Assembly: GCA_965116495.1 (NCBI GenBank)
Contig: OZ220696.1
Span: 1,075,493-1,139,492 of the forward strand
Source of the DNA: Gammaproteobacteria bacterium
GTDB taxonomy: Bacteria; Pseudomonadota; Gammaproteobacteria; Eutrophobiales; Eutrophobiaceae
Length of the DNA stretch: 64,000 nt
Reading direction: 5' to 3'
Below the pieces are notes generated by a model. It was not told where the DNA came from, did no database searches, and saw only the letters and a list, made by a program, of their open reading frames with translations. This document shows positions 2,189-48,245 of this stretch, in pieces. Position 1 is the stretch's first letter; each line of letters opens with the position of its first letter. The position numbers and the translations under genes were made by a program.

Positions 2189-2303
2189 AATTACGAATTA
2201 CAAATTACAAATTACGAATTAGGAATTACGAATTACGAATTACGAATTACGAATTGGGTTTTTAAGATTTTAATTCCTAATTCGTAATTTGTAATTCCTA
2301 ATT
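2189..2303. repeat. Heptamer tandem array (AATTACG/AATTAGG)n with downstream inverted array, locus 1
   Basis: About 10 direct 7-bp units at 2189-2257, a short loop, then inverted units at 2270-2303. Confidence 0.9.
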
Positions 2304-4443: not shown

Positions 4444-4597
4444 ATCCGCAGATGACGCAGATAAACGCAGATTAAAAGACAATTCTTTATATGTGGATGG
4501 TGACCAGGTCGGATTTAATCAATAAAGTCTGAATTTGTCCGGGGCCTGTCAAGTTTTAATATCTTTTATCTGCGTTTATCTGCGTGAATCTGCGGAT
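4444..4597. repeat. CGCAGAT-iteron inverted-repeat element, copy 2 (arms 4444-4472 and 4568-4597)
   Basis: ATCCGCAGATGACGCAGATAAACGCAGAT and its reverse complement, sitting between convergent gst and cfa. Confidence 0.9.
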
Positions 4598-17029: not shown

Positions 17030-17168
17030 TGGCTGTTTGACTGGATTCCGGCTTCCGCCGGAATGACGGATTGACTTCCACCGGAATGACGGATTGACTT
17101 CCACCGGAATGACGGATTGGCTTCCGTCGGAGTGACGGATTGGCTTAACGGCGGAATGACGGGTTGGC
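17030..17168. repeat. Tandem array of about six 23-bp units (ACGGATTGACTTCCACCGGAATG) built on the GTCATTCCGG REP half-site
   Basis: Direct reading of the sequence; lies between convergent dsbB and ffh. Confidence 0.85.
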
Positions 17169-18527
17169 TTAACGGCGGAAACCGCGCTGCTGCATATTAC
17201 CGCCCATTGCGCGCATCATGTTTTCCATGCCGCCTTTTTTACTCAGCTTTTTCATCATCTTCTGCATCCGGTTGAACTGCTTCAACAGGCGATTGATATC
17301 CTGGATCTGGGTCCCTGAGCCGGAAGCAATGCGTTTTTTCCTGGAACCGTTGATGACGGCCGGAAAGCGCCGTTCTCCGGGCGTCATGGAATTAATGATC
17401 GCCTCTGTTTTTACCAGTTCCCGCTCCTGGCCCCCGATATCCGCAGGCATCTGCTGCATCCCCGGCATCTTGTCAAGCAGACCGGTCAGCCCCCCCATGC
17501 GCTGCATCTGCCGGACCTGGTCGCGAAAATCATCCAGGTCAAACCCCTTTCCCTTTTTCAGCTTCCTGGCGATCTTTTTCGCCTTTTCCTGGTCCGTTTT
17601 TTCCTCCACCTCCTCAATCAGGCTCAACATGTCGCCCATGCCCAGAATGCGCGAGGCAATCCTGTCGGGGTGAAATCCGGACAACTCCGAGGTTTTCTCA
17701 CCGGTACCCAGGAACAGGATAGGCTTGCCGGTGACATGCCGGACCGACAGCGCCGCTCCGCCCCGGGCGTCTCCATCCGCTTTCGTCAATATGACGCCGG
17801 TCAGGTCCAGGGCATCGTTAAACGCCCGGGCTGCATTTACCGCATCCTGGCCCATCATGCTGTCCACCAGGAACAGGGTATCAGTCGGGCTAAGCGCGCC
17901 ATGGATGTGTTGAATCTCCGCCATCATTTCATCGTCGATGTGCAACCTTCCGGCAGTATCGACAATCAGGACGTCGGCAAACATCGCCCTGGCGTGTTTC
18001 AGCGCTGCCTTGGCAATGTCTACGGGTTTTTGCTTCCCATCAGCCGGATAGTATTCCAGTTGATTTTCCTGCGCCAGTACCCGCAACTGTTCCAGGGCCG
18101 CAGGCCGGTAGATATCGCAACTGGCCACTACTACTGACTTGCCGTGCTTGTCCCGGCACCAGTTGCCCAGCTTGGCCACCGTCGTGGTCTTGCCGGCGCC
18201 CTGCAAGCCCGCCATCAGAATGACTGCGGGTGGCGGGACGCTTAAATTCAATGAGGCCTGTTCATCTCCCATCAAATGGACCAGTTCATCCTGCACAATT
18301 TTGACGACGGCCTGTCCCGGGCTGAGGCTGGCCGATACCTCCCGGCCCAGCGCCTTGCTTTCGACCCGCTCGAGAAACGCCTTGACGACCGGCAAGGCTA
18401 CGTCTGCCTCCAGCAAGGCCAGGCGTACATCCCGCATGGTGTCCCTGACATTATCTTCCGTCAGGCGCGCATGCCCTCTCAATTGCTGGATGATACGGCT
18501 GAACCGCCCGGTTAAATTTTCAAACAT
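17169..18527 (-). CDS. ffh: Signal recognition particle protein Ffh
   Basis: 452 aa with an N/G GTPase domain (GLQGAGKTT) and a Met-rich M domain. Confidence 0.92.
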   Translation of the reverse strand: MFENLTGRFSRIIQQLRGHARLTEDNVRDTMRDVRLALLEADVALPVVKAFLERVESKALGREVSASLSPGQAVVKIVQDELVHLMGDEQASLNLSVPPPAVILMAGLQGAGKTTTVAKLGNWCRDKHGKSVVVASCDIYRPAALEQLRVLAQENQLEYYPADGKQKPVDIAKAALKHARAMFADVLIVDTAGRLHIDDEMMAEIQHIHGALSPTDTLFLVDSMMGQDAVNAARAFNDALDLTGVILTKADGDARGGAALSVRHVTGKPILFLGTGEKTSELSGFHPDRIASRILGMGDMLSLIEEVEEKTDQEKAKKIARKLKKGKGFDLDDFRDQVRQMQRMGGLTGLLDKMPGMQQMPADIGGQERELVKTEAIINSMTPGERRFPAVINGSRKKRIASGSGTQIQDINRLLKQFNRMQKMMKKLSKKGGMENMMRAMGGNMQQRGFRR

Positions 18528-19544: not shown

Positions 19545-19715
19545 TGAGTCACCGGCTGGATTCCGGCTTGCGCCGGAATGACGAGGGTTGCGCCGGAATG
19601 ACAGGGGTTGTGCCGGAATGACGAAAACGTCATGCCGGGCCTGACCCGGCATCTACTGGGTTCCGGCTTGCGCCAAATGGCTGGGGTTGCGCCGGAATGA
19701 CACTTGCATCCTCCC
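19545..19715. repeat. Array of GCGCCGGAATGAC REP-type units plus a GTCATGCCGGG...CCCGGCATCTAC palindrome
   Basis: Direct reading of the sequence. The reverse strand would encode the well-known spurious VIPAQAGIQ peptide. Confidence 0.85.
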
Positions 19716-26423: not shown

Positions 26424-28039
26424 AGTCTGTCGGACTTGGGCGCTGCGATTATCTTTGCGGACCACTTTTCAGGTCTTTTTGTCGCGGCAAGGCGCACGTG
26501 CATGTTGCCTGAACCTATACATGTACATTATGGGGATGTACAGACCTCACCAGGCGCCTGTCCTGACCGGGTAAACACCCACTGCCCCCTGCATCAGGCC
26601 AGCTGCATGTTATGCAGGCGTTTACAGTTGTAGGCCAGGGCCAGTAACTGCCACTCACCGGTCACCTTCTCATGGCCGCGCAGGAGAAACTGCCGGAACC
26701 CCAGGGCCTGCTTCATGATACCGAACACCGGCTCCACGGTCTGCTGCCGCAACCGGTAGCTGGCCCGGTTGTCCGCCTGTGATAACTTCTCTTGCATCGC
26801 CACCAGCCAGGGCGCTTTCGCCGGCTTGGGCTTGGCCGCCTGCGCCGGGTCCGGCAACGGGCGGAAGTCATGCCGCCGGCGCCGGTCCTCCGTCCCCACC
26901 GCCACCAGCACGTCTATCTCCCGACCGGTCAGCGCAGCCACTTCTGTCTCCGTCGCATAGCCGTTGTCCGCCAACACCTGGGCAGGGGTCCCCAACGCCG
27001 CCGGCACCGAGTCAATGTCAGCGACCAATTCGTTGCGGTCGCTGGCGCATTGGCTGACCCGCGTCCCCAGCACCAACTGGCTGCCGTCCGCATCCACCAC
27101 CGCCTGCGCATTGTACGCCTGCCGGTACTCACTGCGTTTGTTCTTGCGCATCAGGGAACTGTCCGCATCCGTCAGGTTCACCTGGGTGTCCTCCGCCGGG
27201 GTGTCTTCCGGCGGCTTGATAGGGTGCCCCTTGGCCCGGCCCCGACGCTTCTCACGCGCCGCCACCTTGCGCTCGTACTCGGCCTGGTCCGCCTGCGCTT
27301 GCGCCTTGGCCTGGCGCTCCAGACGTGCGCAGGCCGCATCCAGTTGCGTCGCCAGCGCCTCCCGCCGCGCCAACGCCTTCGGCAACTGCTGCGGGTCCGC
27401 CGCGTCCTGGCTGTCCGCACGCTCCGCTTCGGCCAGCAAATCCTTGACCTCACCCCGCAACTGCTCGCGTAATTCCACCGCCCGGTCATAGCGGATACTG
27501 CGCCGCTTGCTCGCAGCCGCCTTCACCTTCGTCCCGTCCACACTCACCCGGCCCACCGTCAACAACTTCAATTCCTTCGCCAGCAATAACACCTCCACAA
27601 AACCCGCCTGTACCGCCTCAAGGTTCTCCCGCCGGAACTTGCAAATCGTGTCATGGTCCGGGTGCGTGTTCGCCGTCACGTAACGCACCCCGATATCCCG
27701 GTACGTCGCTCGCTCAATCCGGCGCGAGGAAAAAATACCGTTCGCATAACAATAAATCAGCAACGCCAGCATGATACGCGGGTGATACTGTGCCGACCCC
27801 GTGCCCCGGGTGTTCACCACAAACTGACTCAAAGGCACCCGTTCCACCGCTGCCACGACAAAATGCGCCAGGTCATCCTCGGGTAGCCACTCGCGTAAAT
27901 CCGGTGGTAACAGGTAGGGTTGGTTACGGTCACTTTGCACAAAGTTTTCCATCGAAGCAGCCTCTATCGAACAGCGTGTGGTATCATCAAATCGTGTCGT
28001 CTATTATACCTCTATCCCAGCCCTAAGTCCGACAGACTG
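26424..28039 (-). mobile_element. IS1182-family (IS5 superfamily) insertion sequence with ~20-bp imperfect terminal IRs and a CTAG target-site duplication
   Basis: IR-L is CAGTCTGTCGGACTTGGGC; IR-R is GCCCCTAAGTCCGACAGACTG. CTAG occurs at 26420-26423 and 28040-28043. Confidence 0.85.
26594..27952 (-). CDS. IS1182-family DDE transposase
   Basis: 452 aa with an N-terminal HTH region, a central Ala/Arg/Glu-rich coiled coil, and a C-terminal DDE domain (VLADNGYATE...). Confidence 0.85.
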   Translation of the reverse strand: MENFVQSDRNQPYLLPPDLREWLPEDDLAHFVVAAVERVPLSQFVVNTRGTGSAQYHPRIMLALLIYCYANGIFSSRRIERATYRDIGVRYVTANTHPDHDTICKFRRENLEAVQAGFVEVLLLAKELKLLTVGRVSVDGTKVKAAASKRRSIRYDRAVELREQLRGEVKDLLAEAERADSQDAADPQQLPKALARREALATQLDAACARLERQAKAQAQADQAEYERKVAAREKRRGRAKGHPIKPPEDTPAEDTQVNLTDADSSLMRKNKRSEYRQAYNAQAVVDADGSQLVLGTRVSQCASDRNELVADIDSVPAALGTPAQVLADNGYATETEVAALTGREIDVLVAVGTEDRRRRHDFRPLPDPAQAAKPKPAKAPWLVAMQEKLSQADNRASYRLRQQTVEPVFGIMKQALGFRQFLLRGHEKVTGEWQLLALAYNCKRLHNMQLA

Positions 28040-28140: not shown

Positions 28141-28899
28141 ATGAGAAAATTATTTTACCTGGCAGTGCTGCTCTGGTTCCCCGGAGCGCATGCACAGTCC
28201 ATGAACGTCGCGGTCGCATCCAACCTGACCCATACGATTAGCGAAATCAGCAAGGTTTTTTTTCTGGATGAGGGAGAAAAGGTCAACCTGACTTTTGGTT
28301 CATCCGGGAATTTTGCCAGGCAGATCGTACAGGGTGCGCCTTACAAGGTCTTTATTTCCGCCGGCAAACAGTACGTGGACTTCATCCGGGACAAGGGCCG
28401 GGAGACAATCGGCTTCAAGGCGCTGGTTCATGGCCGCCTCAGCTTGTATATCCCGGAAACATCGAAACTGGAAAAGCAGGCGACACTGGCCGATGCGCTG
28501 AAGACGATTCAATACGGCGACTTCCGCAGACTGGCTGTCGCCAACCCGGAACATGCACCCTATGGCCAGGCTGCCAGGGAAGCGCTGGTCAATGCAGGTG
28601 TATGGGTTGTTAACCACAAAAAGCTGCTGTTTGGTGAAAATGCAGCGCAGGCAATGCAATTCTGCCTGTCCGGAAGCGTAGACATGTGTATCATTCCCAG
28701 TTCTTTTCTGGTGCTGGAACAATTCTCAGGCAAGGGAGACAATTTCACGATCCCGCTGAAGTGGCACCCTCCCATCACTCAATACGCTGTTTTGCTCGAT
28801 AACAGCGATGAACAGGGCGTGCGCTATTTTAACTACCTGTCGTCCGCGTCCAGTGAAGCCATTTTCAGGAAACACGGCTACATCTTGATTGAGAATTAA
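28141..28899 (+). CDS. modA: Molybdate ABC transporter substrate-binding protein
   Basis: Signal peptide MRKLFYLAVLLWFPGAHA followed by the ModA-like VAVASNL...SSG fold; start 96 bp downstream of the IS end. Confidence 0.85.
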   Translation: MRKLFYLAVLLWFPGAHAQSMNVAVASNLTHTISEISKVFFLDEGEKVNLTFGSSGNFARQIVQGAPYKVFISAGKQYVDFIRDKGRETIGFKALVHGRLSLYIPETSKLEKQATLADALKTIQYGDFRRLAVANPEHAPYGQAAREALVNAGVWVVNHKKLLFGENAAQAMQFCLSGSVDMCIIPSSFLVLEQFSGKGDNFTIPLKWHPPITQYAVLLDNSDEQGVRYFNYLSSASSEAIFRKHGYILIEN

Positions 28900-29056
28900 G
28901 AATTAGGAATTACGAATTACGAATTGGGAATTGGGAATGACTGTACATGGCGGGGTTCTGTTTATCGAGATGGCCGTACCAAATCAGCACCGCTCAGAAC
29001 TTGTGTTAGAGTAACGTGTCCCCAATTCGTAATTCCTAATTCGTAATTCGTAATTC
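28892..29056. repeat. Heptamer array hairpin, locus 2: forward (GAATTAA/GG/CG) units at 28892-28939, inverted units at 29020-29056
   Basis: The array begins inside the modA stop codon and ends 8 bp before the modB ATG. Confidence 0.9.
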
Positions 29057-29064
29057 AAATTTAT

Positions 29065-29736
29065 ATGGACTGGCAAGCCCTAAACGTTTCCCTGCTTCTC
29101 GCCGCGCTGACTGCGCTAATCCTGACACCCATCGGAATCCTGGTCGCACGCAAGCTGGCCTGGTCGCAATTCCCCGGACGCAATTTCGCCCAGGCCCTGG
29201 TTGCGCTGCCATTGATATTGCCGCCGACCGTATTAGGCTTTTACCTGATGATCAGCCTGGGAGAACTGTCACCCATCGGCAGGTTGTATGAGGGAATAGC
29301 GGGTGAGTCCCTGGTATTCTCGTTCGAGGGTATCCTGCTGGCATCGATTATTTTCAATATCCCGTTCGCCGTCCAGCCGGTACAACGCAGTTTCGAGTCA
29401 ATACCGCTCAATGTGCGCGAGGCGGCCTGGTGCAGCGGTCTTTCCGGCTGGCAGACATTCTGGCGCATCGAACTGCCCCTGGCGTGGCCGGGGGTTATCT
29501 CTGCCGCCATCCTGACCATTGCCCATACCCTGGGCGAATTCGGGGTGGTCCTGATGGTGGGCGGTAACCTGGCCGGTGAAACCCGCACCGTCGCCATTGC
29601 CATCTATGATCGCGTCCAGGCTTTCGATAACGCCGGCGCCGCAACCATGTCCGCGGCACTGCTCGTGATTTCGCTTGTCTCCATCACTCTGATCTACTTC
29701 CTGACTGACCGGGCAGGTAACCATGGCCGACGCTGA
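29065..29736 (+). CDS. modB: Molybdate ABC transporter permease
   Basis: 223 aa with 5 TM segments and an EAA-like loop. Confidence 0.85.
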   Translation: MDWQALNVSLLLAALTALILTPIGILVARKLAWSQFPGRNFAQALVALPLILPPTVLGFYLMISLGELSPIGRLYEGIAGESLVFSFEGILLASIIFNIPFAVQPVQRSFESIPLNVREAAWCSGLSGWQTFWRIELPLAWPGVISAAILTIAHTLGEFGVVLMVGGNLAGETRTVAIAIYDRVQAFDNAGAATMSAALLVISLVSITLIYFLTDRAGNHGRR

Positions 29737-30831: not shown

Positions 30832-31533
30832 TCATTTCTCCTCTTGCTCTTCCATTCTAGCCTTTGAAAGTGCAGACGCCAACAGTCCTGCCGGAATAGC
30901 GACTATCCCTAAGCCAATCATTAAAATGAGAAAAGTAAATATTTTTCCTCCCGCTGTTATGGGATAAACATCACCATAACCTACTGTTGTTAAAGTGGTC
31001 ACTGCCCACCATAAGCTATGGATAATACTTTTGAACGCTTCCGGCTGAGCCTCGTTTTCGCAATAATAAATGCCCACAGCTGATAAATATAAGAGCATCA
31101 CAGTTACCACGCCGAAAATAGCAATCTCTTCTTTTGCAATTACAAACGCCCTGGTAAATCTCCGAATAGCCTTGCCGGATCGGAAAAATTTCATAAGCCG
31201 AATAATCCGTAGCCATCGGAGATCAATGCTGAATGACAGGAAAAAGAAAAGATAAAAAGGGATGATCGCTATCAAATCGATGAGTCCATAAATACTCAGT
31301 ACATAACCGAGTTTCCTGTCAGCCACATAAAATCTAAGAAAATATTCAACGGTAAATATGATTACTATGACTACTTCTGTAATATGAAGTAATTTTCTGG
31401 CGCTGGCTCCAAGATCAGGTAACGTTTCTATGGAAAACGTGATAACAGAGAACAAGATCAGTGATTGCATAACCAGATCGAATATACGACCCGCTTGAGT
31501 ATCGTTTCTCTCAACTATCGACTTTATATTCAT
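30832..31533 (-). CDS. Voltage-gated K+ channel (6TM, Kv-like)
   Basis: S4 segment LRWLRIIRLMKFFR and TVGYGD selectivity filter. The gene is ~39% GC against ~57% GC flanks. Confidence 0.85.
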   Translation of the reverse strand: MNIKSIVERNDTQAGRIFDLVMQSLILFSVITFSIETLPDLGASARKLLHITEVVIVIIFTVEYFLRFYVADRKLGYVLSIYGLIDLIAIIPFYLFFFLSFSIDLRWLRIIRLMKFFRSGKAIRRFTRAFVIAKEEIAIFGVVTVMLLYLSAVGIYYCENEAQPEAFKSIIHSLWWAVTTLTTVGYGDVYPITAGGKIFTFLILMIGLGIVAIPAGLLASALSKARMEEQEEK

Positions 31534-31629: not shown

Positions 31630-33240
31630 CTAAGTCGTTTTGACGGTCGGCACCGCGGCCAGCAGGTTTTTCGTGTACTCATGCTGCGGGGATGCCAACA
31701 CCCTGCCAGTAGCGCCCTGCTCTACTATCCTGCCACGGTACATTACTGCCACGTCATCGGCAAAGCTGGCAACGACGCTGATATTATGGGTGATGAACAG
31801 GTAGGCCAGTCCCAGTTCCTTCTGCAGGCCTGCCAGCAACTCCAGTATGCGCGCCTGGACCGTTACGTCCAGGGCGCTGGTCGGTTCATCGCATACCAGT
31901 AATTTCGGCCTGACGGCCAGCGCCCGGGCAATGCAGATGCGCTGCCTCTGCCCGCCGGAAAACTCGTGCGGGTAACGGTATTTAAATCCAGGTTCAAGCC
32001 CGACCTGGGTGAGCAGTTCATCGACAACAGCCTGCCTTTCCCCGGTAGTTTTACCGCGCCCGAGGGAGAGCATGCCCTCCTCGATAATATCCTTGACCAT
32101 TATCTGCGGGTTCATGGACGAGAACGGGTCCTGGAATACCACCTGCATGTGCGCGCGCTGCCGGCGCAATTGCGACGGTGACAGGTCGAGCAGGTTGTCA
32201 CCGGCCAGGTAGACCGTCCCCGCTGCAGGTTTCAGCAGTTGCAGGATGCCTTTGCCCAGGGTCGTCTTGCCGGAACCCGATTCGCCCACGACGGCCAGGG
32301 TACGTCCCTGTTTAAGTTCCAGTGATACCCCGTCCACGGCGCGCAGGTAACCGGCAGTACCGCCGAAGAAACCCGTTTGCGTGGGAAATTGCACTTCCAG
32401 CCCGGACACCCTGAGCATCGGCGTGCCTGGTACCGGCGGTTTTTCCATGCGCCTTGCCCGGGCGTCAGGCAGGGAAGCAAGCAGGTTTCTCGAGTAGGGG
32501 TGCTGCGGTTGGTCGAAGAATTGACGGGTTGGACCGGTTTCCACGATCCTGCCTTCGTTCATGACGGCAACCCGGTCCGACACCCGGGACGCCACGGCAA
32601 GGTCATGGGTGATAAACAGCATGGCCATTCCCATATCGCGCTGCAGCTTTTTCAGCAGTTCCAGCATGCGCGCCTGCGTTGTAACGTCCAGTGCGGTAGT
32701 CGGTTCGTCGGCAATGAGCAACTCGGGTTCCCCGGCCAGGGCGATCGCCAGCATGACCCGTTGCTTCATGCCGCCGGAAAACTGGTGCGGGTAGTCATCA
32801 ACGCGCCGTGCGGGTTCCGGAATACCCACCGCTTCCAGTACTTCAATCACCTTCCCCCGGCGCACTTTCCCGCGCAGTCCCCGGTGCTGCTGCAAGCTCT
32901 CCCCTACCTGTACTCCCACCGTCAGTGCCGGGTTGAGGGAGGTCTGCGGTTCCTGGAATATCATGGCGATATGACCGCCGCGGAAAGCGCGTATGCTTGT
33001 TTCAGGCAGCGTGAGAAGATCGGTGCCGTTGAACAATACGGAACCGCTGATCTCGGCCGACTTCGGCAACAGGCGGGTAATACTCAGCGCAGTGACGGAC
33101 TTGCCGCTGCCCGATTCTCCCAGCAAGGCAAGGGTTTCCCCCGCCCGGATGCGAAAGTCCACACCAGCCACTGCCTGTACCGGGTGGCCGTCACCGGCAA
33201 ACCTGACATTCAGGGAATTAACGTCCAACAGCGCTGTCAT
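31630..33240 (-). CDS. yejF: Peptide ABC transporter ATP-binding protein with two fused NBDs (YejF-like)
   Basis: Two Walker A sites ([16 protein letters not shown]) and two LSGG signatures; 536 aa. Confidence 0.85.
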
Positions 33241-33260
33241 ATTGAGAATTATGATTATTT

Positions 33261-33426
33261 ATCTGCAAATTACGCAGATTATCGCAGATAAAAATACAAA
33301 TTTATTATTGAAGTTGTCTGGTTCAGATATGGTTAATTTAAACCTGATTTTATCCGGAAGCTGAAAAACAGTTAATCAGTAAATTTTTTTATAATTTAAT
33401 CTGCGATAATCTGCCTAATCTGCGGA
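33261..33426. repeat. CGCAGAT-iteron inverted-repeat element, copy 6, in the divergent yejF / yejA region
   Basis: ATCTGCAAATTACGCAGATTATCGCAGAT ... ATCTGCGATAATCTGCCTAATCTGCGGA. Confidence 0.85.
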
Positions 33427-33432
33427 CAAATA

Positions 33433-35205
33433 ATGAAAATAATCACGTACAAGCTGTGCCTGCTACTGAGTATATCGGTGAGCCTCATCCACGTGGTGGG
33501 TGCCCAGGAATATCCCCGGCCCGGATGGCAGGAGCAAATGTCGCCTCTGGCCAGCCCTGATGCCTACCCAGGCGGGGAATTCTCCTTCTGGTCAGGGCCT
33601 TTCCCGAAGAGTTTCAATTACTACCTGGATAGCACGGTGACATCCAGCCGGCTGTTCAATCTCCTGTTTGAAAAACTGCTTACCGTCAACGGTTTAACCC
33701 TGGAATTCGAACCCAGCCTCGCCGCTTCGTGGTCCGTCTCAAGGGACCGCACCACCTTTGAGTTCAGGCTGGACGACCGGGCCAAGTGGAGCGACGGCGT
33801 TCCCGTCAGCGCCCATGACGTCGCCTGGACCTATGATGCAATCATGGACCCGAAAAACCTGACCGGACCCCACAAGATTGCCTTTGAGCGGTTTTACCGG
33901 CCGGAGGTCATTGACGGGCAGACGGTCCGCTTCAAGGCCAGGGAAGTTCACTGGAAAAACCTGTTGTCGCTGGGAACGTTCCATGTACTTCCCTCCCACG
34001 TATTCAAGGACCTGGATTTCAACAAGATCAACTTCGAGTTCCCTGTCGTGTCGGGTCCGTATTCAGTTGAATCGGTACGGGAAGGCATTACGCTGACGCT
34101 GAAACGCCGCACGCAATGGTGGCAATGGGTCCGGGCAAGCACCCGTGGGATTGCCAATTTCGACAGGCTGAAGTTCCGCTTCTTCACCGAGCGGGAAAAC
34201 GCGTTTGCCGAGTTCAAGACCGGCAACCTGGACTATTACCCGGTTTATACCGCCTCCCGCTGGGCGACGGAAACCACCGGTGCGGCATACGACAACAACT
34301 GGATCATCAAGCAGGAGGTGTATAACTATAACCCCATCGGCTTCCAGGGGTTTGCCATGAACCTGCGGCGGGCCAAGTTTGCCGACCTGCGGGTCCGGCT
34401 TGCCCTCGCCCACCTGCTGGACCGGGAGCGGATGAACCAGGCGATCATGCACGAAGCCTACTTCCTGCACCGGTGTTATTTCGAAGACCTGTACGACGGG
34501 CAGACACCCTGCCGCGGGCCGGAAATACGTTTCGACAAGGATGAAGCGAGACGCCTGCTGGAAGAAGCCGGCTGGATAGTCGATAAGGACACCGGTTTGT
34601 TGGAAAAAGACGGTCAGCCGTTCATCATCCACTTCCTCACCCGCAGTCCGACATCGGATAAATTTCTGGCCATCTACCAGGAAGACCTGAACGATGTCGG
34701 AATACAGCTTAAGATCGTCAGGAAGGACTGGGCCGCCTGGATAAAGGACATGGATGAGTTCAACTTTGACATGACCTGGGCGGCCTGGAGCGCATCCCTG
34801 TTCAAGGATCCGGAATCCCTGTGGCATTCGAAGGAAGCCGACCGTGCCGGCGGGCAGAACATCACCGGTTACAAAAACGCCGAAATCGACGCCATGATTG
34901 ATACGTTGCGGACGGAATTCGACATCCGTAAACGCCATGACATCATACGGCGCATTGACACCATCCTGGCCAATGATATCCCCTATGTCCTGCTCTGGAA
35001 CCTGAATTACCGACGCCTGTTGTACTGGAACAAGTTCGGCACCCCGGAGACCGTGTTAGCGAAGTTCCTGGGGGAAGAAGGCGCTTACCTGTTCTGGTGG
35101 TACGACGAGGATTCAGCCGCCGACCTGGAATACGCGCGCGAGACAGACGAACCCCTGCCCGGACGTGATGAGATTGTCGTGTTCGACGAGATATTTCAGC
35201 AATAA
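33433..35205 (+). CDS. yejA: Peptide ABC transporter substrate-binding protein (SBP family 5, YejA-like)
   Basis: 590 aa with signal peptide and family-5 SBP fold. Confidence 0.8.
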   Translation: MKIITYKLCLLLSISVSLIHVVGAQEYPRPGWQEQMSPLASPDAYPGGEFSFWSGPFPKSFNYYLDSTVTSSRLFNLLFEKLLTVNGLTLEFEPSLAASWSVSRDRTTFEFRLDDRAKWSDGVPVSAHDVAWTYDAIMDPKNLTGPHKIAFERFYRPEVIDGQTVRFKAREVHWKNLLSLGTFHVLPSHVFKDLDFNKINFEFPVVSGPYSVESVREGITLTLKRRTQWWQWVRASTRGIANFDRLKFRFFTERENAFAEFKTGNLDYYPVYTASRWATETTGAAYDNNWIIKQEVYNYNPIGFQGFAMNLRRAKFADLRVRLALAHLLDRERMNQAIMHEAYFLHRCYFEDLYDGQTPCRGPEIRFDKDEARRLLEEAGWIVDKDTGLLEKDGQPFIIHFLTRSPTSDKFLAIYQEDLNDVGIQLKIVRKDWAAWIKDMDEFNFDMTWAAWSASLFKDPESLWHSKEADRAGGQNITGYKNAEIDAMIDTLRTEFDIRKRHDIIRRIDTILANDIPYVLLWNLNYRRLLYWNKFGTPETVLAKFLGEEGAYLFWWYDEDSAADLEYARETDEPLPGRDEIVVFDEIFQQ

Positions 35206-36248
35206 TGGAACGCACCCACTACATCATCCGGCGCCTGCTGCTCGTCATCCCCACATTCATCGGCATTACTTTCGTCTGTTTCGCCCTGTGCCAGTTCATC
35301 CCCGGCGGGCCGGTGGAGCAGGCGATCATGGCGATGCGCGGGATCGGTGATGGATCCGTCGATGCGGCTGCGGCCGCCGGGCCAAGCGGGATCTCTCCGG
35401 AACAGCGCAAGGCCCTGGAACAGCATTTTGGTTTCGACAGGCCGCTCGTGAAGCGTTATTGGAAATGGCTGGTTGCCGACCGCATCGGCATGGCCGTCGA
35501 CTCCTATAAGTACCCGAACAAGACCGTCCTGCAACTGATCATCGAGCGATTTCCGGTCTCGCTGATCTTCGGACTGACCGGCTTCTTCCTGACCTACCTA
35601 ATCTGCATCCCCCTAGGGATAGCCAAGGCCGTCAAAAACGGTTCATGGTTCGATGTAAGCAGCAGTATCCTGGTGTTCATCGGCTACGCCATCCCCGCGT
35701 TCGCCTTCGGCATGCTGCTGAAGATGTTCCTGTCCGGCACCACGGAGGGGCTATGGGATATCTTCCCCGTCAGCGGTTTTACCTCGGAGAATTTCACCGA
35801 ACTGTCAACGGCGGACAAGGCCAGGGACCTGTTCATGCACATGTTCCTGCCGGTCACCTGCTACATGATAGGCAATTTCGCAGTCCTTACCCTGCTCATG
35901 AAGAACAGCCTGCTGGAACAGATCAGCCAGGATTACGTGCGCACGGTGCTGGCCAAGGGCGCCACCTTCAACAGGGCCATCTGGGGCCATGCCTTCCGTA
36001 ATTCCCTGATACCCATTGCGACGGGATTCGGCAGCATCTTTACCCTGATTTTCGCCGGATCGGTGCTGATAGAAAAAGTCTTTGAAATACCCGGCATGGG
36101 CCTGCTGAGCCTGGACGCCATCGTCAGCAGGGATTATATGGTGTTCATGGGCATACTGGCTTTGACTTCCATTCTCGGACTCATCGGCAGGATCTTCTCC
36201 GATGTCTGTTACATGTTCATCGATCCAAGGATACATTTTGATGTCTGA
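35205..36248 (+). CDS. yejB: Peptide ABC transporter permease (YejB-like)
   Basis: N-terminus MERTHYIIRRLLLVIPTFIGITFVCF; BPD permease domain. Confidence 0.85.
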   Translation: MERTHYIIRRLLLVIPTFIGITFVCFALCQFIPGGPVEQAIMAMRGIGDGSVDAAAAAGPSGISPEQRKALEQHFGFDRPLVKRYWKWLVADRIGMAVDSYKYPNKTVLQLIIERFPVSLIFGLTGFFLTYLICIPLGIAKAVKNGSWFDVSSSILVFIGYAIPAFAFGMLLKMFLSGTTEGLWDIFPVSGFTSENFTELSTADKARDLFMHMFLPVTCYMIGNFAVLTLLMKNSLLEQISQDYVRTVLAKGATFNRAIWGHAFRNSLIPIATGFGSIFTLIFAGSVLIEKVFEIPGMGLLSLDAIVSRDYMVFMGILALTSILGLIGRIFSDVCYMFIDPRIHFDV

Positions 36249-39684: not shown

Positions 39685-41315
39685 TGAGCTGGACAGGTCG
39701 AACCGGGTTAGTGGCCAGCCTAGTTTCGACATTATTGCTGGCTGCCTCATGCGGCTTCAATTACGAAACGAATGTAGAGAGCGGTGCGCGTGAGGGGATA
39801 TTACATATCGGTAATGGCGACGAACCCCGGGAGCTTGATCCCCATGTCGTAACCGGCCGCATCGAGTCCGACCTGTGCCTGGCGCTGCTGGAAGGCCTGG
39901 TCGGCTGGCATCCCGAAGGAAAGCGCTTGATCCCCGCCGCCGCCAAATCCTGGGAGCAAAGCGAAGACGCCAGAACATACCGGTTCCACCTGCGTGAAGA
40001 CGCAAAATGGTCCAACGGCGACCCGGTAACGGCCACGGACTTTGTCTATTCATGGCGCCGGGCGCTGCTGCCTGCCCTGGGCAACAACTATGCTTATATG
40101 CTGTATTACATCAGGAACGCGGAAAGGTTCCACCAGGGGGAAATAACGGATTTCTCCCGGGTGGGCATCACGGCGCCCGATGACCTGACCCTGGTGGTCG
40201 AACTTGAGAACCCGACGCCATTTTTCCTGCAGTTACTGACACACATGAGCTATTATCCCGTCCACCAGGCGACTGTCGAAGCGTTCGGGGCCGCGGATGA
40301 ACGCGGCACGCGCTGGACCCGTCCGGGGAACCACGTGGGGAACGGCCCGTTCAAGCTGAAGGAGTGGGTGCTGAACCGCAGCATCGTCGTGGAGAAGAAC
40401 GAATATTACTGGGATGCCGGTGCGGTGAAATTGAACCAGATCGTCTTCTACCCAGTCCAGAATGCGACCACGGAAGAACGCATGTTCCGCGCCGGCCAGT
40501 TGCACATCACCACTAATATGCCGGTTGACAAGATAGCGCACTACCGGCAGGAAAGACCCGGCACCCTGAAAATCTCACCTTATTTATCGACCTACTACTA
40601 TCTCTTCAATACTACCGTTGCGCCGCTCGACCGGGTAAAGGTCAGGCAGGCCCTGACCATGTCCATCGACCGGCAACAGGTAGTAGATAAGATCACCAAG
40701 GCGGGAGAGATCCCGGCCTTCAGCTACACCCCGCCTGATACCAACGGCTACACGGCAACCGCGCGGGTACGCTATGACCTGGAACGCGCCAAGGCCCTGC
40801 TCGCGGAAGCGGGCTATCCTGGCGGGACGGGTTTTCCCGGCCTGGAGTTAATGTACAACACCTCCGAGGGGCATCGCCGGATAGCCATAGCCATCCAGCA
40901 GATGTGGAAGACCAACCTCAACATCGACGTTACGCTGACGAACCAGGACTGGAAGGTATACCTGGATAAACGCGATGAGAAAGACTACCAGGTAGCGCGG
41001 GCCGGCTGGATTGGTGATTACCTGGATCCCAATACCTTTCTCGATATGTACACTACAAACAGCGGCAATAACGACACGGGCTGGTCGAACCGGCGCTACG
41101 ACGCACTGATAGCACTGGCCGGCGCAACCACGGACCAGGAACGCCGCTTCACCCTTTTCCAGGATGCCGAATCCATCCTGATGACCGAGTTGCCTATCAT
41201 GCCCATCTACACGTACGTCAGCAAATCACTGGTCTCACCGGACGTGCGCGGCTGGTATCCGAATATCCTGGATATCCACCCGTTTAAATATATTTCCCTG
41301 GTGTCAGGAAAATGA
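39684..41315 (+). CDS. Second family-5 substrate-binding lipoprotein (OppA/DppA-like)
   Basis: Lipobox LLAASC; 543 aa. Confidence 0.8.
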   Translation: MSWTGRTGLVASLVSTLLLAASCGFNYETNVESGAREGILHIGNGDEPRELDPHVVTGRIESDLCLALLEGLVGWHPEGKRLIPAAAKSWEQSEDARTYRFHLREDAKWSNGDPVTATDFVYSWRRALLPALGNNYAYMLYYIRNAERFHQGEITDFSRVGITAPDDLTLVVELENPTPFFLQLLTHMSYYPVHQATVEAFGAADERGTRWTRPGNHVGNGPFKLKEWVLNRSIVVEKNEYYWDAGAVKLNQIVFYPVQNATTEERMFRAGQLHITTNMPVDKIAHYRQERPGTLKISPYLSTYYYLFNTTVAPLDRVKVRQALTMSIDRQQVVDKITKAGEIPAFSYTPPDTNGYTATARVRYDLERAKALLAEAGYPGGTGFPGLELMYNTSEGHRRIAIAIQQMWKTNLNIDVTLTNQDWKVYLDKRDEKDYQVARAGWIGDYLDPNTFLDMYTTNSGNNDTGWSNRRYDALIALAGATTDQERRFTLFQDAESILMTELPIMPIYTYVSKSLVSPDVRGWYPNILDIHPFKYISLVSGK

Positions 41316-41540
41316 CGAATTAGGAATTACGAATTACGAATTACGAATTAGGAATTACGAATTACGAATTACGAATTACGAATTACGAATTACGAATTAG
41401 GAATTAGGAATTAGGAATTAGGAATTACGAATTAGGAATTAGGAATTAGGAATTAGGAATTAGGAATTAGGAATCATTAAGTTGGCAAAATACTTCACTA
41501 ACCTAGAATTCGTAATTCCTAATTCCTAATTCGTAATTCT
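41316..41540. repeat. Heptamer array hairpin, locus 3: ~22 forward GAATTAC/GG units at 41316-41474, inverted units at 41504-41540
   Basis: Starts on the base after the SBP stop codon and ends 12 bp before the permease ATG. Confidence 0.9.
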
Positions 41541-41552
41541 CTAGATAATAAT

Positions 41553-43381: not shown

Positions 43382-43534
43382 ATCCGCAGATGACGCAGAT
43401 TACCGCAGATAAAAATATAAAAGATCAGGAGACTTACAAAATTCTTGGGGCGGCAATGGCTGTACATAGAGAACTGGGACATGGTTTTCTTGAGACTTGT
43501 TTTTAATCTGCGTTAATCTGCGTCATCTGCGGAT
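43382..43534. repeat. CGCAGAT-iteron inverted-repeat element, copy 7, carrying a 28-codon GxxExxY-family gene fragment (43420-43506) in its spacer
   Basis: The arms are perfect 29-bp inverted repeats. The spacer translates to KDQETYKILGAAMAVHRELGHGFLETCF* and ends exactly at the right arm. Confidence 0.8.
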
Positions 43535-45670: not shown

Positions 45671-45692
45671 CCGCCCTGATATCAGGATGTAT

Positions 45693-45840
45693 ATCCGCAG
45701 ATGACGCAGATTAACGCAGATGGTATACAATTAGTTCTGTTTACTCTGAACACTCCTTGTGTTTCGTCATGTTCTGTTTAAGCGCATGTATTAAAGTTTT
45801 GATATCTTTTCATCTGCGTTAATCTGCGTCATCTGCGGAT
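45693..45840. repeat. CGCAGAT-iteron inverted-repeat element, copy 8 (perfect arms), between convergent genes
   Basis: ATCCGCAGATGACGCAGATTAACGCAGAT ... ATCTGCGTTAATCTGCGTCATCTGCGGAT. Confidence 0.9.
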
Positions 45841-45863
45841 AGATCATCCACGGCATTTCCCGG

Positions 45864-48127: not shown

Positions 48128-48245
48128 GTATACGCCCCGCTGTCATTCCGGGCTTGATCCGGAATCCAATGAAAACGTAATGTTTTATAAACAATGATTG
48201 ATTGTTTGACTGGATGCCGGGTCAAGCCCGGCATGACGGTCGGGG
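48128..48245. repeat. REP-like palindromes (GTCATTCCGGGCTTGATCCGGAATCC ... ATGCCGGGTCAAGCCCGGCATGAC)
   Basis: Direct reading of the sequence, in the lon-tRNA intergenic region. Confidence 0.8.

Follow-up and report, generated by a model that had tools for sequence, protein, structure and literature searches.

Among long microsatellites, heptameric repeats are the ones most over-represented in many bacteria. Here we describe three palindromic arrays of tandem GAATTA[C/G] heptamers (hereafter GAATTAS) in a 64,000-nt stretch of contig OZ220696.1 (assembly GCA_965116495.1), from an uncultured gammaproteobacterial lineage; this whole stretch is referred to as the window, and positions are counted from its first nucleotide. 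An initial annotation of the window had drawn attention to the position of two of these arrays, between a substrate-binding-protein gene and a permease gene, and had proposed that they take the place of repetitive extragenic palindromic (REP) sequences, stabilising the upstream message and lowering expression of the downstream gene. REP sequences are the established intercistronic precedent, as in malE-malF; in REP and bacterial interspersed mosaic elements (BIMEs), each unit is one imperfect palindrome of ∼35 nt, and the copies, which are many and nearly identical, follow a family consensus and are linked to RAYT transposases. The comparisons presented below suggest that the three loci are probably hypervariable palindromic heptamer microsatellites, with an effect on operon polarity that is incidental or tunable.

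The closest described repeats are those of Xanthomonas and Nostoc (Rehm et al. 2015, PLoS One, PMC4692102). The Xanthomonas unit is GGGAATC, with ∼185 repeats per genome and 70–75 convergent inverted pairs. These repeats are 89–93% intergenic, mostly with aligned open reading frames (ORFs) on both sides, with a mode of four units, and their length varies widely between close species. On the coding strand they overlap or follow stop codons; on the non-coding strand they sit just upstream of ORFs. Nostoc PCC 7120 has GGGGA[C/T]T repeats, including a 26-unit array within an operon, between pecE and pecF. G-quadruplexes were proposed and are formed in vitro by both GGGAATC and GGGGAYT, the function being stated as unknown (PMC4692102).

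Two further heptamer systems are relevant. In Haemophilus influenzae, the transcribed repeat of hmw1A forms a long hairpin that is cleaved by RNase III, and it was shown experimentally that expression depends on the number of units (Rapun-Araiz et al. 2025, NAR, PMC12721329). In marine Beggiatoaceae, cyanobacteria and Bacteroidetes, TAACTGA direct repeats precede start codons in hosts that are poor in Shine-Dalgarno sequences, and a post-transcriptional network has been proposed (MacGregor 2015, PMC4679880). These arrays have 2–6 units and end ∼1 nt before the start codon, with one inverted case among 170.

Three heptamer palindromes span stop-to-start gaps

The three elements share a general plan, in which a run of GAATTA[C/G] units is followed by a non-repetitive loop and then by a shorter run of complementary units. 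All three are convergent inverted pairs, and all three span the gap between a stop codon and the next start codon: at modA|modB (locus 2), at an Opp-type binding protein|permease junction (locus 3) and, on the minus strand, at a dUTPase-like|DUF192 junction (locus 1). The palindromes at these junctions are 110–240 nt in size. Tandem Repeats Finder reported a period of 7 at the arrays, with 4.7–22.6 copies and 84–96% matches, and an in-register scan was concordant.

At locus 2, the upstream gene is modA (domain SBP_bac_11). Its ORF ends ATT GAG AAT TAA, so that the TAA stop (28897–28899) lies inside the first heptamer. The 5′ arm (28893–28941, plus strand) comprises seven units, GAATTAA, GAATTAG, GAATTAC, GAATTAC, GAATTGG, GAATTGG and GAATGAC. 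It is followed by a non-repetitive spacer of ∼80 nt (28942–29021, plus strand) and by a 3′ arm (29022–29056, minus strand) of five complementary units, CCAATTC, GTAATTC, CTAATTC, GTAATTC and GTAATTC. Eight nucleotides (AAATTTAT) separate this arm from the modB ATG (29065). The initial annotation had this array beginning in the TAA and ending 8 bp before the ATG.

The gene upstream of locus 3, of the SBP_bac_5 type, has its TGA stop at 41313–41315. The 5′ arm (41317–41474, plus strand) starts 1 nt past this stop and contains 22.6 GAATTA[C/G] units; the loop (41475–41506, plus strand) is ∼32 nt long, and the 3′ arm (41507–41539, minus strand) has 4.7 complementary units and ends 13 nt before the permease ATG (41553). 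The earlier placement of this array at 41316–41552, 12 bp before the ATG, was right to within 1–2 nt, and at both transporter junctions the coordinates bear out its position exactly between the binding-protein stop and the permease start. The whole element measures 237 nt. Since the short arm pairs with many registers of the long arm (91–97% complementarity), the modelled stem can slide between registers.

Locus 1, previously given as 2189–2303 and assigned to a gene 3′ end, likewise occupies a stop|start gap, in this case of the minus strand. Its array encloses the TAG with which the dUTPase_2-family gene ends (2300–2298, minus strand). The 5′ arm of the minus-strand transcript (2271–2304) has about five (4.7) units, CAATTAG, GAATTAC, AAATTAC, GAATTAG and GAATTA. 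The loop (2258–2270, minus strand) is about 13–15 nt and, read on the minus strand with the adjacent bases, is aaatcttaaaaaccc. The 3′ arm of the same transcript (2188–2257, with its units on the plus strand) has about ten (9.6) units, and the DUF192 ATG (2183–2181, minus strand) lies 5 nt beyond it. The locus is bounded by GATC at either side.

The two-unit sequence GAATTASGAATTAS, allowing at most one mismatch, has 44 matches in the window against an expectation of 0.05; all of them are in the three loci, and none of the shuffled sequences reached 44. A chance origin is excluded.

Predicted folds and transcription signals

The inverted-repeat arms are 33–37 nt long and 92–97% complementary. 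RNA folding predictions for the three loci gave −64 kcal/mol (z = −5.6), −71 kcal/mol (z = −7.3) and −43 kcal/mol (z = −8.8). A search of the whole window against Rfam at the gathering threshold matched only three tRNAs, and nothing at the arrays. Neither a terminator-like site (a GC stem with a T-run), looked for at all three loci, nor a promoter consensus, looked for at locus 2, was found. Given their operon-internal position and the lack of a terminator consensus, the arrays would be read through. The loop of locus 3 contains a sigma-70-like match, TTGGCA-16-TAGAAT (41482–41509, plus strand, 10/12), facing the permease gene, although the number of such matches is within shuffle expectation. 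This consensus match could give a transcript free of the hairpin.

If the hairpins had been selected as RNA structures, a better fold of the sense strand might be looked for. Over 11 pairs, however, no consistent difference between sense and antisense folding was found (the sense strand was better in 5 and not in 6), and the arrays are therefore without a signature of RNA-level selection.

The same junctions in related genomes

Relatives of the three loci were taken from homologues of ModB, the permease and the DUF192 protein, with 81–100% identity, on contigs of long-read metagenome-assembled genomes (MAGs), and the orthologous junctions were compared. The first point to note is that many of these junctions have no array. 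Eleven related modA|modB loci are array-free, with gaps of 19 nt in L124–127 and L135–140 and of 8 nt in L141. The Opp-type junction is array-free in five relatives, with gaps of 1, 21, 21, 9 and 32 nt, which means that the 237-nt element of locus 3 is specific to the lineage of the window. These absences at both transporter junctions speak against the earlier suggestion that the hairpin is a device for setting binding-protein and permease levels.

Where modA|modB does carry an array, its form differs between lineages. L022 (OZ242265) has the element of the window with two extra units, and its spacer is ∼94% identical. In L121–123 the junction contains a different heptamer hairpin, with five AGGGRTY units, a 7-nt loop and four inverted units (L121 9916–9994); this L121 allele is rich in G-tracts. 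In L128 (9853–9992), ∼70 nt of unique sequence precede a one-armed array of 10.6 AATTCTT units. The non-repeat stretch ahead of the L128 array begins TTTATCGCAAGATTACCGTGGAT and resembles a degenerate CGCAGAT-type arm. As to the surroundings of the element, the alignment of 28900–29099 with the L022 region is a mosaic, and the neighbouring 31643–36248 is 95% identical. No other copy of the locus 2 spacer was present in any sequence compared, and a 22-mer from it had zero matches in the JGI metagenomes.

The arrays have also altered the gene ends. ModA terminates in ...GYTLAE* in the array-free relatives and in ...LIEN*, ...LIGD* or ...LVRD* in the array-bearing ones, where the final codons of modA and its stop come from the first heptamer unit. 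It follows that the array has taken the place of the gene's original terminus, as far as the protein tolerates.

At locus 1, L312 and L313 have the same flanks as the window and an identical loop of ∼15 nt, with 3.7 + 2.6 units where the window has 4.7 + 9.6. As judged from these alignments, the arrays gain and lose whole units between close relatives: two more in L022, 2.6 against 9.6 units in L312, and several states, differing also in unit sequence, at modA|modB. On the same grounds they appear as young, lineage-specific fillings of junctions that are 1–32 nt long in relatives. Tight operon junctions in a host poor in Shine-Dalgarno sequences can evidently accept palindromes of 110–240 nt.

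Shine-Dalgarno usage

The initial annotation had remarked that neither permease gene has a recognisable Shine-Dalgarno sequence, and considered that the array might occlude the ribosome-binding site. The absence itself holds for both genes, but it is not specific to them. Only 12 of 54 heuristic starts sampled in the window have a lenient 4-mer at −17 to −7, leaving ∼42 without, among them those of clpP, clpX, lon and tig. The array-free orthologous junctions likewise have none. Since the sequence is largely missing genome-wide, and is missing at array-free junctions, the arrays neither replace it nor explain its absence; the lack characterises the organism and does not result from the arrays. 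Low Shine-Dalgarno usage is odd for a gammaproteobacterium and is common to phyla rich in heptamer repeats.

GAATTAS arrays in other genomes

A search with three exact GAATTAS units found at least 120 stretches of GTDB species genomes, from more than 10 phyla. The hosts include Nostocales and other cyanobacteria, Bacteroidota, Acidobacteriota, Chloroflexota, Verrucomicrobiota, Planctomycetota, lineages of the candidate phyla radiation, Clostridia, Desulfobacterota and Gammaproteobacteria. The census figures in this section were obtained among the GTDB matches listed, as found by three exact units.

Of 185 arrays, just 11 fall within ORFs of 90 aa or more, so that 94% are intergenic where ∼79% of the sequence is coding; arrays are thus far from being as frequent inside coding regions as between them. 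Pairs in opposite orientation are convergent in 19 cases and divergent in 6. Many of the convergent pairs fill the entire gap between co-directional or convergent genes, with outer ends no more than ∼10 nt from the ORF ends, and in these other phyla the genes on the two sides are unrelated pairs. Taken with the dUTPase-like|DUF192 junction of locus 1, this removes the proposed tie to binding-protein|permease pairs.

The number of units peaks at four, with 44, 63 and 45 arrays of three, four and five units, a distribution ascertained through the three-unit search. In the repeats of Rehm et al., the G-rich strand is nearer to the ORF at its 5′ side. GAATTAS arrays follow this rule when all are taken together, with a median distance of 36 nt to the 5′ side as against 91 nt to the 3′ side. 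The solitary arrays show no such asymmetry (43 versus 37 on the 5′ and 3′ sides, P = 0.58), and the effect therefore comes from the paired arrays. No preference of solitary arrays for an orientation or distance relative to start codons was found. Only 7 of 80 are found between divergent genes, and positions between convergent genes are over-represented (22 of 80). The tandem repeats at these sites have 7 as their dominant period, with 123 distinct heptamer units, indicating that genomes bearing GAATTAS are rich in heptamer repeats generally.

In IMG/VR, (GAATTAS)3 occurs in at least 100 viral-contig stretches (L142–L241), giant-virus MAGs included, against 18, 18 and 34 stretches for three composition-matched permuted heptamers. 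The enrichment over the permutations, ∼3–5-fold in viral contigs among the matches listed, is real but moderate. A literature search found no paper that prints dimers of the GAATTAS unit.

Comparison with described repeat systems

On sequence features, the elements of the window match nearly every structural and positional property of the heptameric simple sequence repeats (SSRs) of Rehm et al., the G-tracts being the clear exception. Both consist of at least two 7-nt units arranged head to tail, with heterogeneous positions in the unit; both are intergenic, lie at or over the ends of ORFs and are rare between divergent genes; and both show frequent convergent pairs and variation in unit number and sequence. 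The GAATTGG unit found in the window is one base away from GAATCGG, a rotation of the Xanthomonas GGGAATC. On this basis, the arrays of the window belong to the known class of intergenic heptameric SSRs represented in Xanthomonas and Nostoc. The hosts differ, the window coming from an uncultured gammaproteobacterial lineage and GAATTAS occurring in more than 10 phyla. The main difference lies in the unit: the Xanthomonas and Nostoc repeats have G-tracts, whereas GAATTA[C/G] is AT-rich, has no GGG run and cannot form a G-quadruplex. Only two GAATTGGG units are present, both at locus 2. That an AT-rich unit shares the habits of the G-rich repeats weakens the G-quadruplex idea, and attention therefore shifts to the hairpin or palindrome and to slippage.

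With the hmw1A repeat, the window arrays have in common a heptamer SSR as the left arm of a hairpin, predicted in the case of the window, and a rapidly changing number of units. The hmw1A unit, however, is ATCTTTC and lies in a 5′ untranslated region, and its right arm is a unique G-rich segment, whereas the window arrays are intercistronic and their right arm is an inverted array. In the window, moreover, the stems of 33–36 bp are predicted, and transcription would follow from the operon position.

The TAACTGA repeats are likewise intergenic heptamers next to start codons, in Shine-Dalgarno-poor hosts and with a patchy spread across phyla, and some of these arrays overlap the end of the upstream ORF, as in the window. 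They differ in their unit and in being direct repeats of one orientation, whereas in the window it is the complementary hairpin arm that adjoins the start codon. REP and BIME sequences resemble the elements of the window in placing an intercistronic stem 3′ of a binding-protein gene, with potential protection of the upstream mRNA, which for the window rests on the modelled fold. The window stems consist of tandem heptamers and vary in length, and neither a tandem heptamer structure nor variation by whole units is known from REP or BIME sequences.

A second family of inverted arrays

The window holds another family of inverted arrays, with three CGCAGATNA units, a spacer of ∼85–110 nt and three inverted units. 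Five copies are present (326–475, 4447–4594, 33243–33445, 43382–43534 and 45692–45841), and further copies occur in relatives at L312/L313 11713–11860 and L121 14280–14505. The arms are conserved, and the spacers of different copies are unrelated. At least 120 loci and at least 54 convergent pairs of this family, mostly with 3 + 3 units, were found in the JGI metagenomes. A literature search gave no match for the family, and CGCAGAT units were not found there in a relevant context.

Two spacers of this family are seen in both orientations. The one 3′ of a glycerate-kinase gene is inverted between L312 and L313, which come from one sample and are 99.3% identical over 16.5 kb. The other separates divergently oriented genes for an ABC ATPase and a binding protein, and has opposite orientations in the window and in L121; here, the alignment has 88 of 113 identical columns in the reverse direction against 56 of 121 in the forward direction. 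The CGCAGATNA family is therefore a candidate invertible or recombining element by these alignments. Both orientations between inverted repeats, the feature of an inverton, are found in this family and not in the heptamer loops. At L312/L313 7715–7861, the orthologue of window 4447–4594, the element has an unrelated spacer, which contains nested inverted 9-mer arrays, CACAGAGNA and CTCTGTGNN, three of each.

Origin and meaning of the heptamer palindromes

Rare unit variants are mirrored in the two arms. The AAATTAC variant is found in both arms of locus 1, each arm of locus 2 has GAATTGG beside the loop, and the two arms of the L121 array are exact mirror images of each other over units 3–5. 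Over 22 convergent pairs, complementarity is higher between the two arms of a pair than between arms taken from different loci (0.931 versus 0.889, one-sided P = 0.001), in a test made without a within-genome control, to which genome-specific unit usage could contribute. The simplest reading of these unit patterns is an inverted duplication followed by slippage of units; selection for pairing would also fit.

What such palindromes would do in RNA can be sketched from the predicted folds. Stems of 33–36 bp suffice for RNase III and block 3′ exonucleases. Read-through RNA would fold into an AU-rich stem of this length, which would bring the upstream stop codon and the downstream start codon together at its base. 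The stem would be open to cleavage by RNase III, would impede 3′ exonucleases and would mask the region from about −8 to −40 of the downstream gene, so that the two cistrons would be uncoupled to a degree set by the number of units. Going by such a model, a strain-level or incidental effect on relative expression is plausible. In our judgement, the polarity effect is a tolerated side-effect or at most a tuning knob at the level of strains, not a conserved regulator of transporter stoichiometry.

Several observations weigh against regarding the loci simply as hypervariable microsatellites. Between the window and L022, the element at locus 2 is 95% identical, whereas the flanking modA and modB are only 78–87% identical. 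Purifying selection on the element is one possible reason, and would not be expected on a purely neutral view; a short patch of recombination within a mosaic population would account for the pattern as well. The modA|modB junction holds three different array states across lineages, which hints, on sequence comparison, at a site preference beyond slippage alone. Among the viral-contig matches listed, GAATTAS is only ∼3–5 times commoner than its composition-matched permutations, and the recurrence of the unit across phyla is only partly explained. Finally, the equal folding of sense and antisense strands lends no support to selection at the RNA level, and the RNA-level consequences in this uncultured lineage are ones that we infer.

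The proposal of the initial annotation, that the hairpin is a selected REP-like regulator kept to stabilise the binding-protein message, lower the permease and so yield an excess of binding protein, has several facts on its side. The positions are intercistronic, the predicted stems are long, a binding-protein gene precedes two of the three loci, the window and L022 are more alike in the locus 2 element than in the sequence around it, and there is the precedent of the malE-malF REP. Yet most relatives lack the element at both transporter junctions, unrelated or convergent genes flank the third locus and the pairs in other phyla, unit number and even unit sequence vary among relatives, and the sense strand has no folding advantage. 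Thus the REP-like position and the predicted long stem stand, but a conserved role in the ratio of binding protein to permease is without support, and we consider a selected regulator of this kind unlikely. Arrays of this type should not be annotated as conserved regulators without comparative or expression evidence.

A broader possibility is that the GAATTAS palindromes and the CGCAGATNA arrays are members of one cross-phylum class of self-renewing inverted arrays that act as hypervariable junction switches, by change in the number of units or by inversion or exchange of the loop, possibly aided by a dedicated enzyme or binding protein. We offer this as speculation and think it rather unlikely. 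If true, members of the class would take up residence where a stop codon faces a start or another stop codon and would set operon polarity anew in each strain, which would explain both the recurrence of the unit in more than 10 phyla and the repeated colonisation of modA|modB. In any case, the cross-phylum behaviour of the unit that does not form G-quadruplexes and the invertible CGCAGATNA family are the more interesting leads from this window.

The architecture shared with the CGCAGATNA family also bears on a switch operating at the DNA level, in which the inverted arrays would serve as recombination arms, the loop would be inverted or exchanged, and the loop of locus 3 may carry a permease promoter. 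The 3 + 3 arrays of the CGCAGATNA family do flank spacers that are inverted between 99.3% identical strains and between the window and L121, and the 10/12 sigma-70-like match in the locus 3 loop faces the permease gene. No heptamer loop, however, was found inverted: locus 2 has the same orientation in the window and L022, as does locus 1 in the window and L312/L313. Given also that the promoter match is within shuffle expectation and that the loop of locus 1 is only ∼15 nt, we regard such a switch at the heptamer loci as improbable.

We give the same low weight to an array of sites recognised by a heptamer-specific RNA- or DNA-binding protein, as part of a post-transcriptional network of the kind proposed for TAACTGA. 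It would account for the presence of GAATTAS in more than 10 phyla and for its ∼3–5-fold excess over composition-matched permutations among the viral-contig matches listed, and Shine-Dalgarno sequences are scarce in this host, just as in those of TAACTGA (PMC4679880). A candidate protein was not found, however. The units are heterogeneous, with a different heptamer at the same site in a close relative; solitary arrays have no preferred orientation or distance to start codons; and the genomes bearing GAATTAS hold more than 100 other heptamer units.

A miniature inverted-repeat transposable element (MITE) with terminal inverted repeats built of heptamers would be consistent with inverted termini around a short core, with the varying presence of the elements among relatives and with the GATC on either side of locus 1. 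It is nevertheless very improbable, as the cores (∼15, 80 and 32 nt) are unrelated and none recurs in the sequences compared, no target duplication is present at loci 2 and 3, and arm lengths differ by whole units between orthologues. Least credible of all is a G-quadruplex element or an intrinsic terminator: in spite of the in vitro G-quadruplexes of the related GGGAATC and GGGGAYT (PMC4692102) and the G-tract-rich modA|modB allele of L121, GAATTA[C/G] lacks G-tracts apart from the two units at locus 2, the mode of 4–5 units and the convergent-pair architecture persist despite the missing G-tracts, and none of the three loci has a GC stem with a T-run.

Neighbouring genes and other repeats

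A DDE transposase gene (DDE_Tnp_1/DUF772, 452 aa; 26594–27952, minus strand) is inserted between an NmrA-like gene and modA, at a site that corresponds to the upstream region of modA in relatives. A perfect 34-nt inverted repeat (26155–26188/26388–26421) adjoins the transposase gene. The ORF at 17169–18527 was considered as a second copy of this insertion sequence (IS) and rejected, as it matches the ffh of relatives and has only random identity to the IS.

Downstream, a 233-aa ORF (30832–31533, minus strand) lies between modC and an ABC ATPase gene and by its sequence would encode an ion-channel-like membrane protein. The alignment of the window with L022 breaks down across this interval, and at the same position relatives have other genes or none, such as a toxin–antitoxin pair (HTH/Gp49) in L121.

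Two tandem repeats, a 23-mer (5.2 copies, 17050–17170) and a 20-mer (2.8 copies, 19568–19624), have a common CCGGAATGACG core. A 40-nt inverted repeat at 48135–48244 also holds GTCATTCCGG. From their sequences, the CCGGAATGACG/GTCATTCCGG repeats look like another intergenic repeat family.

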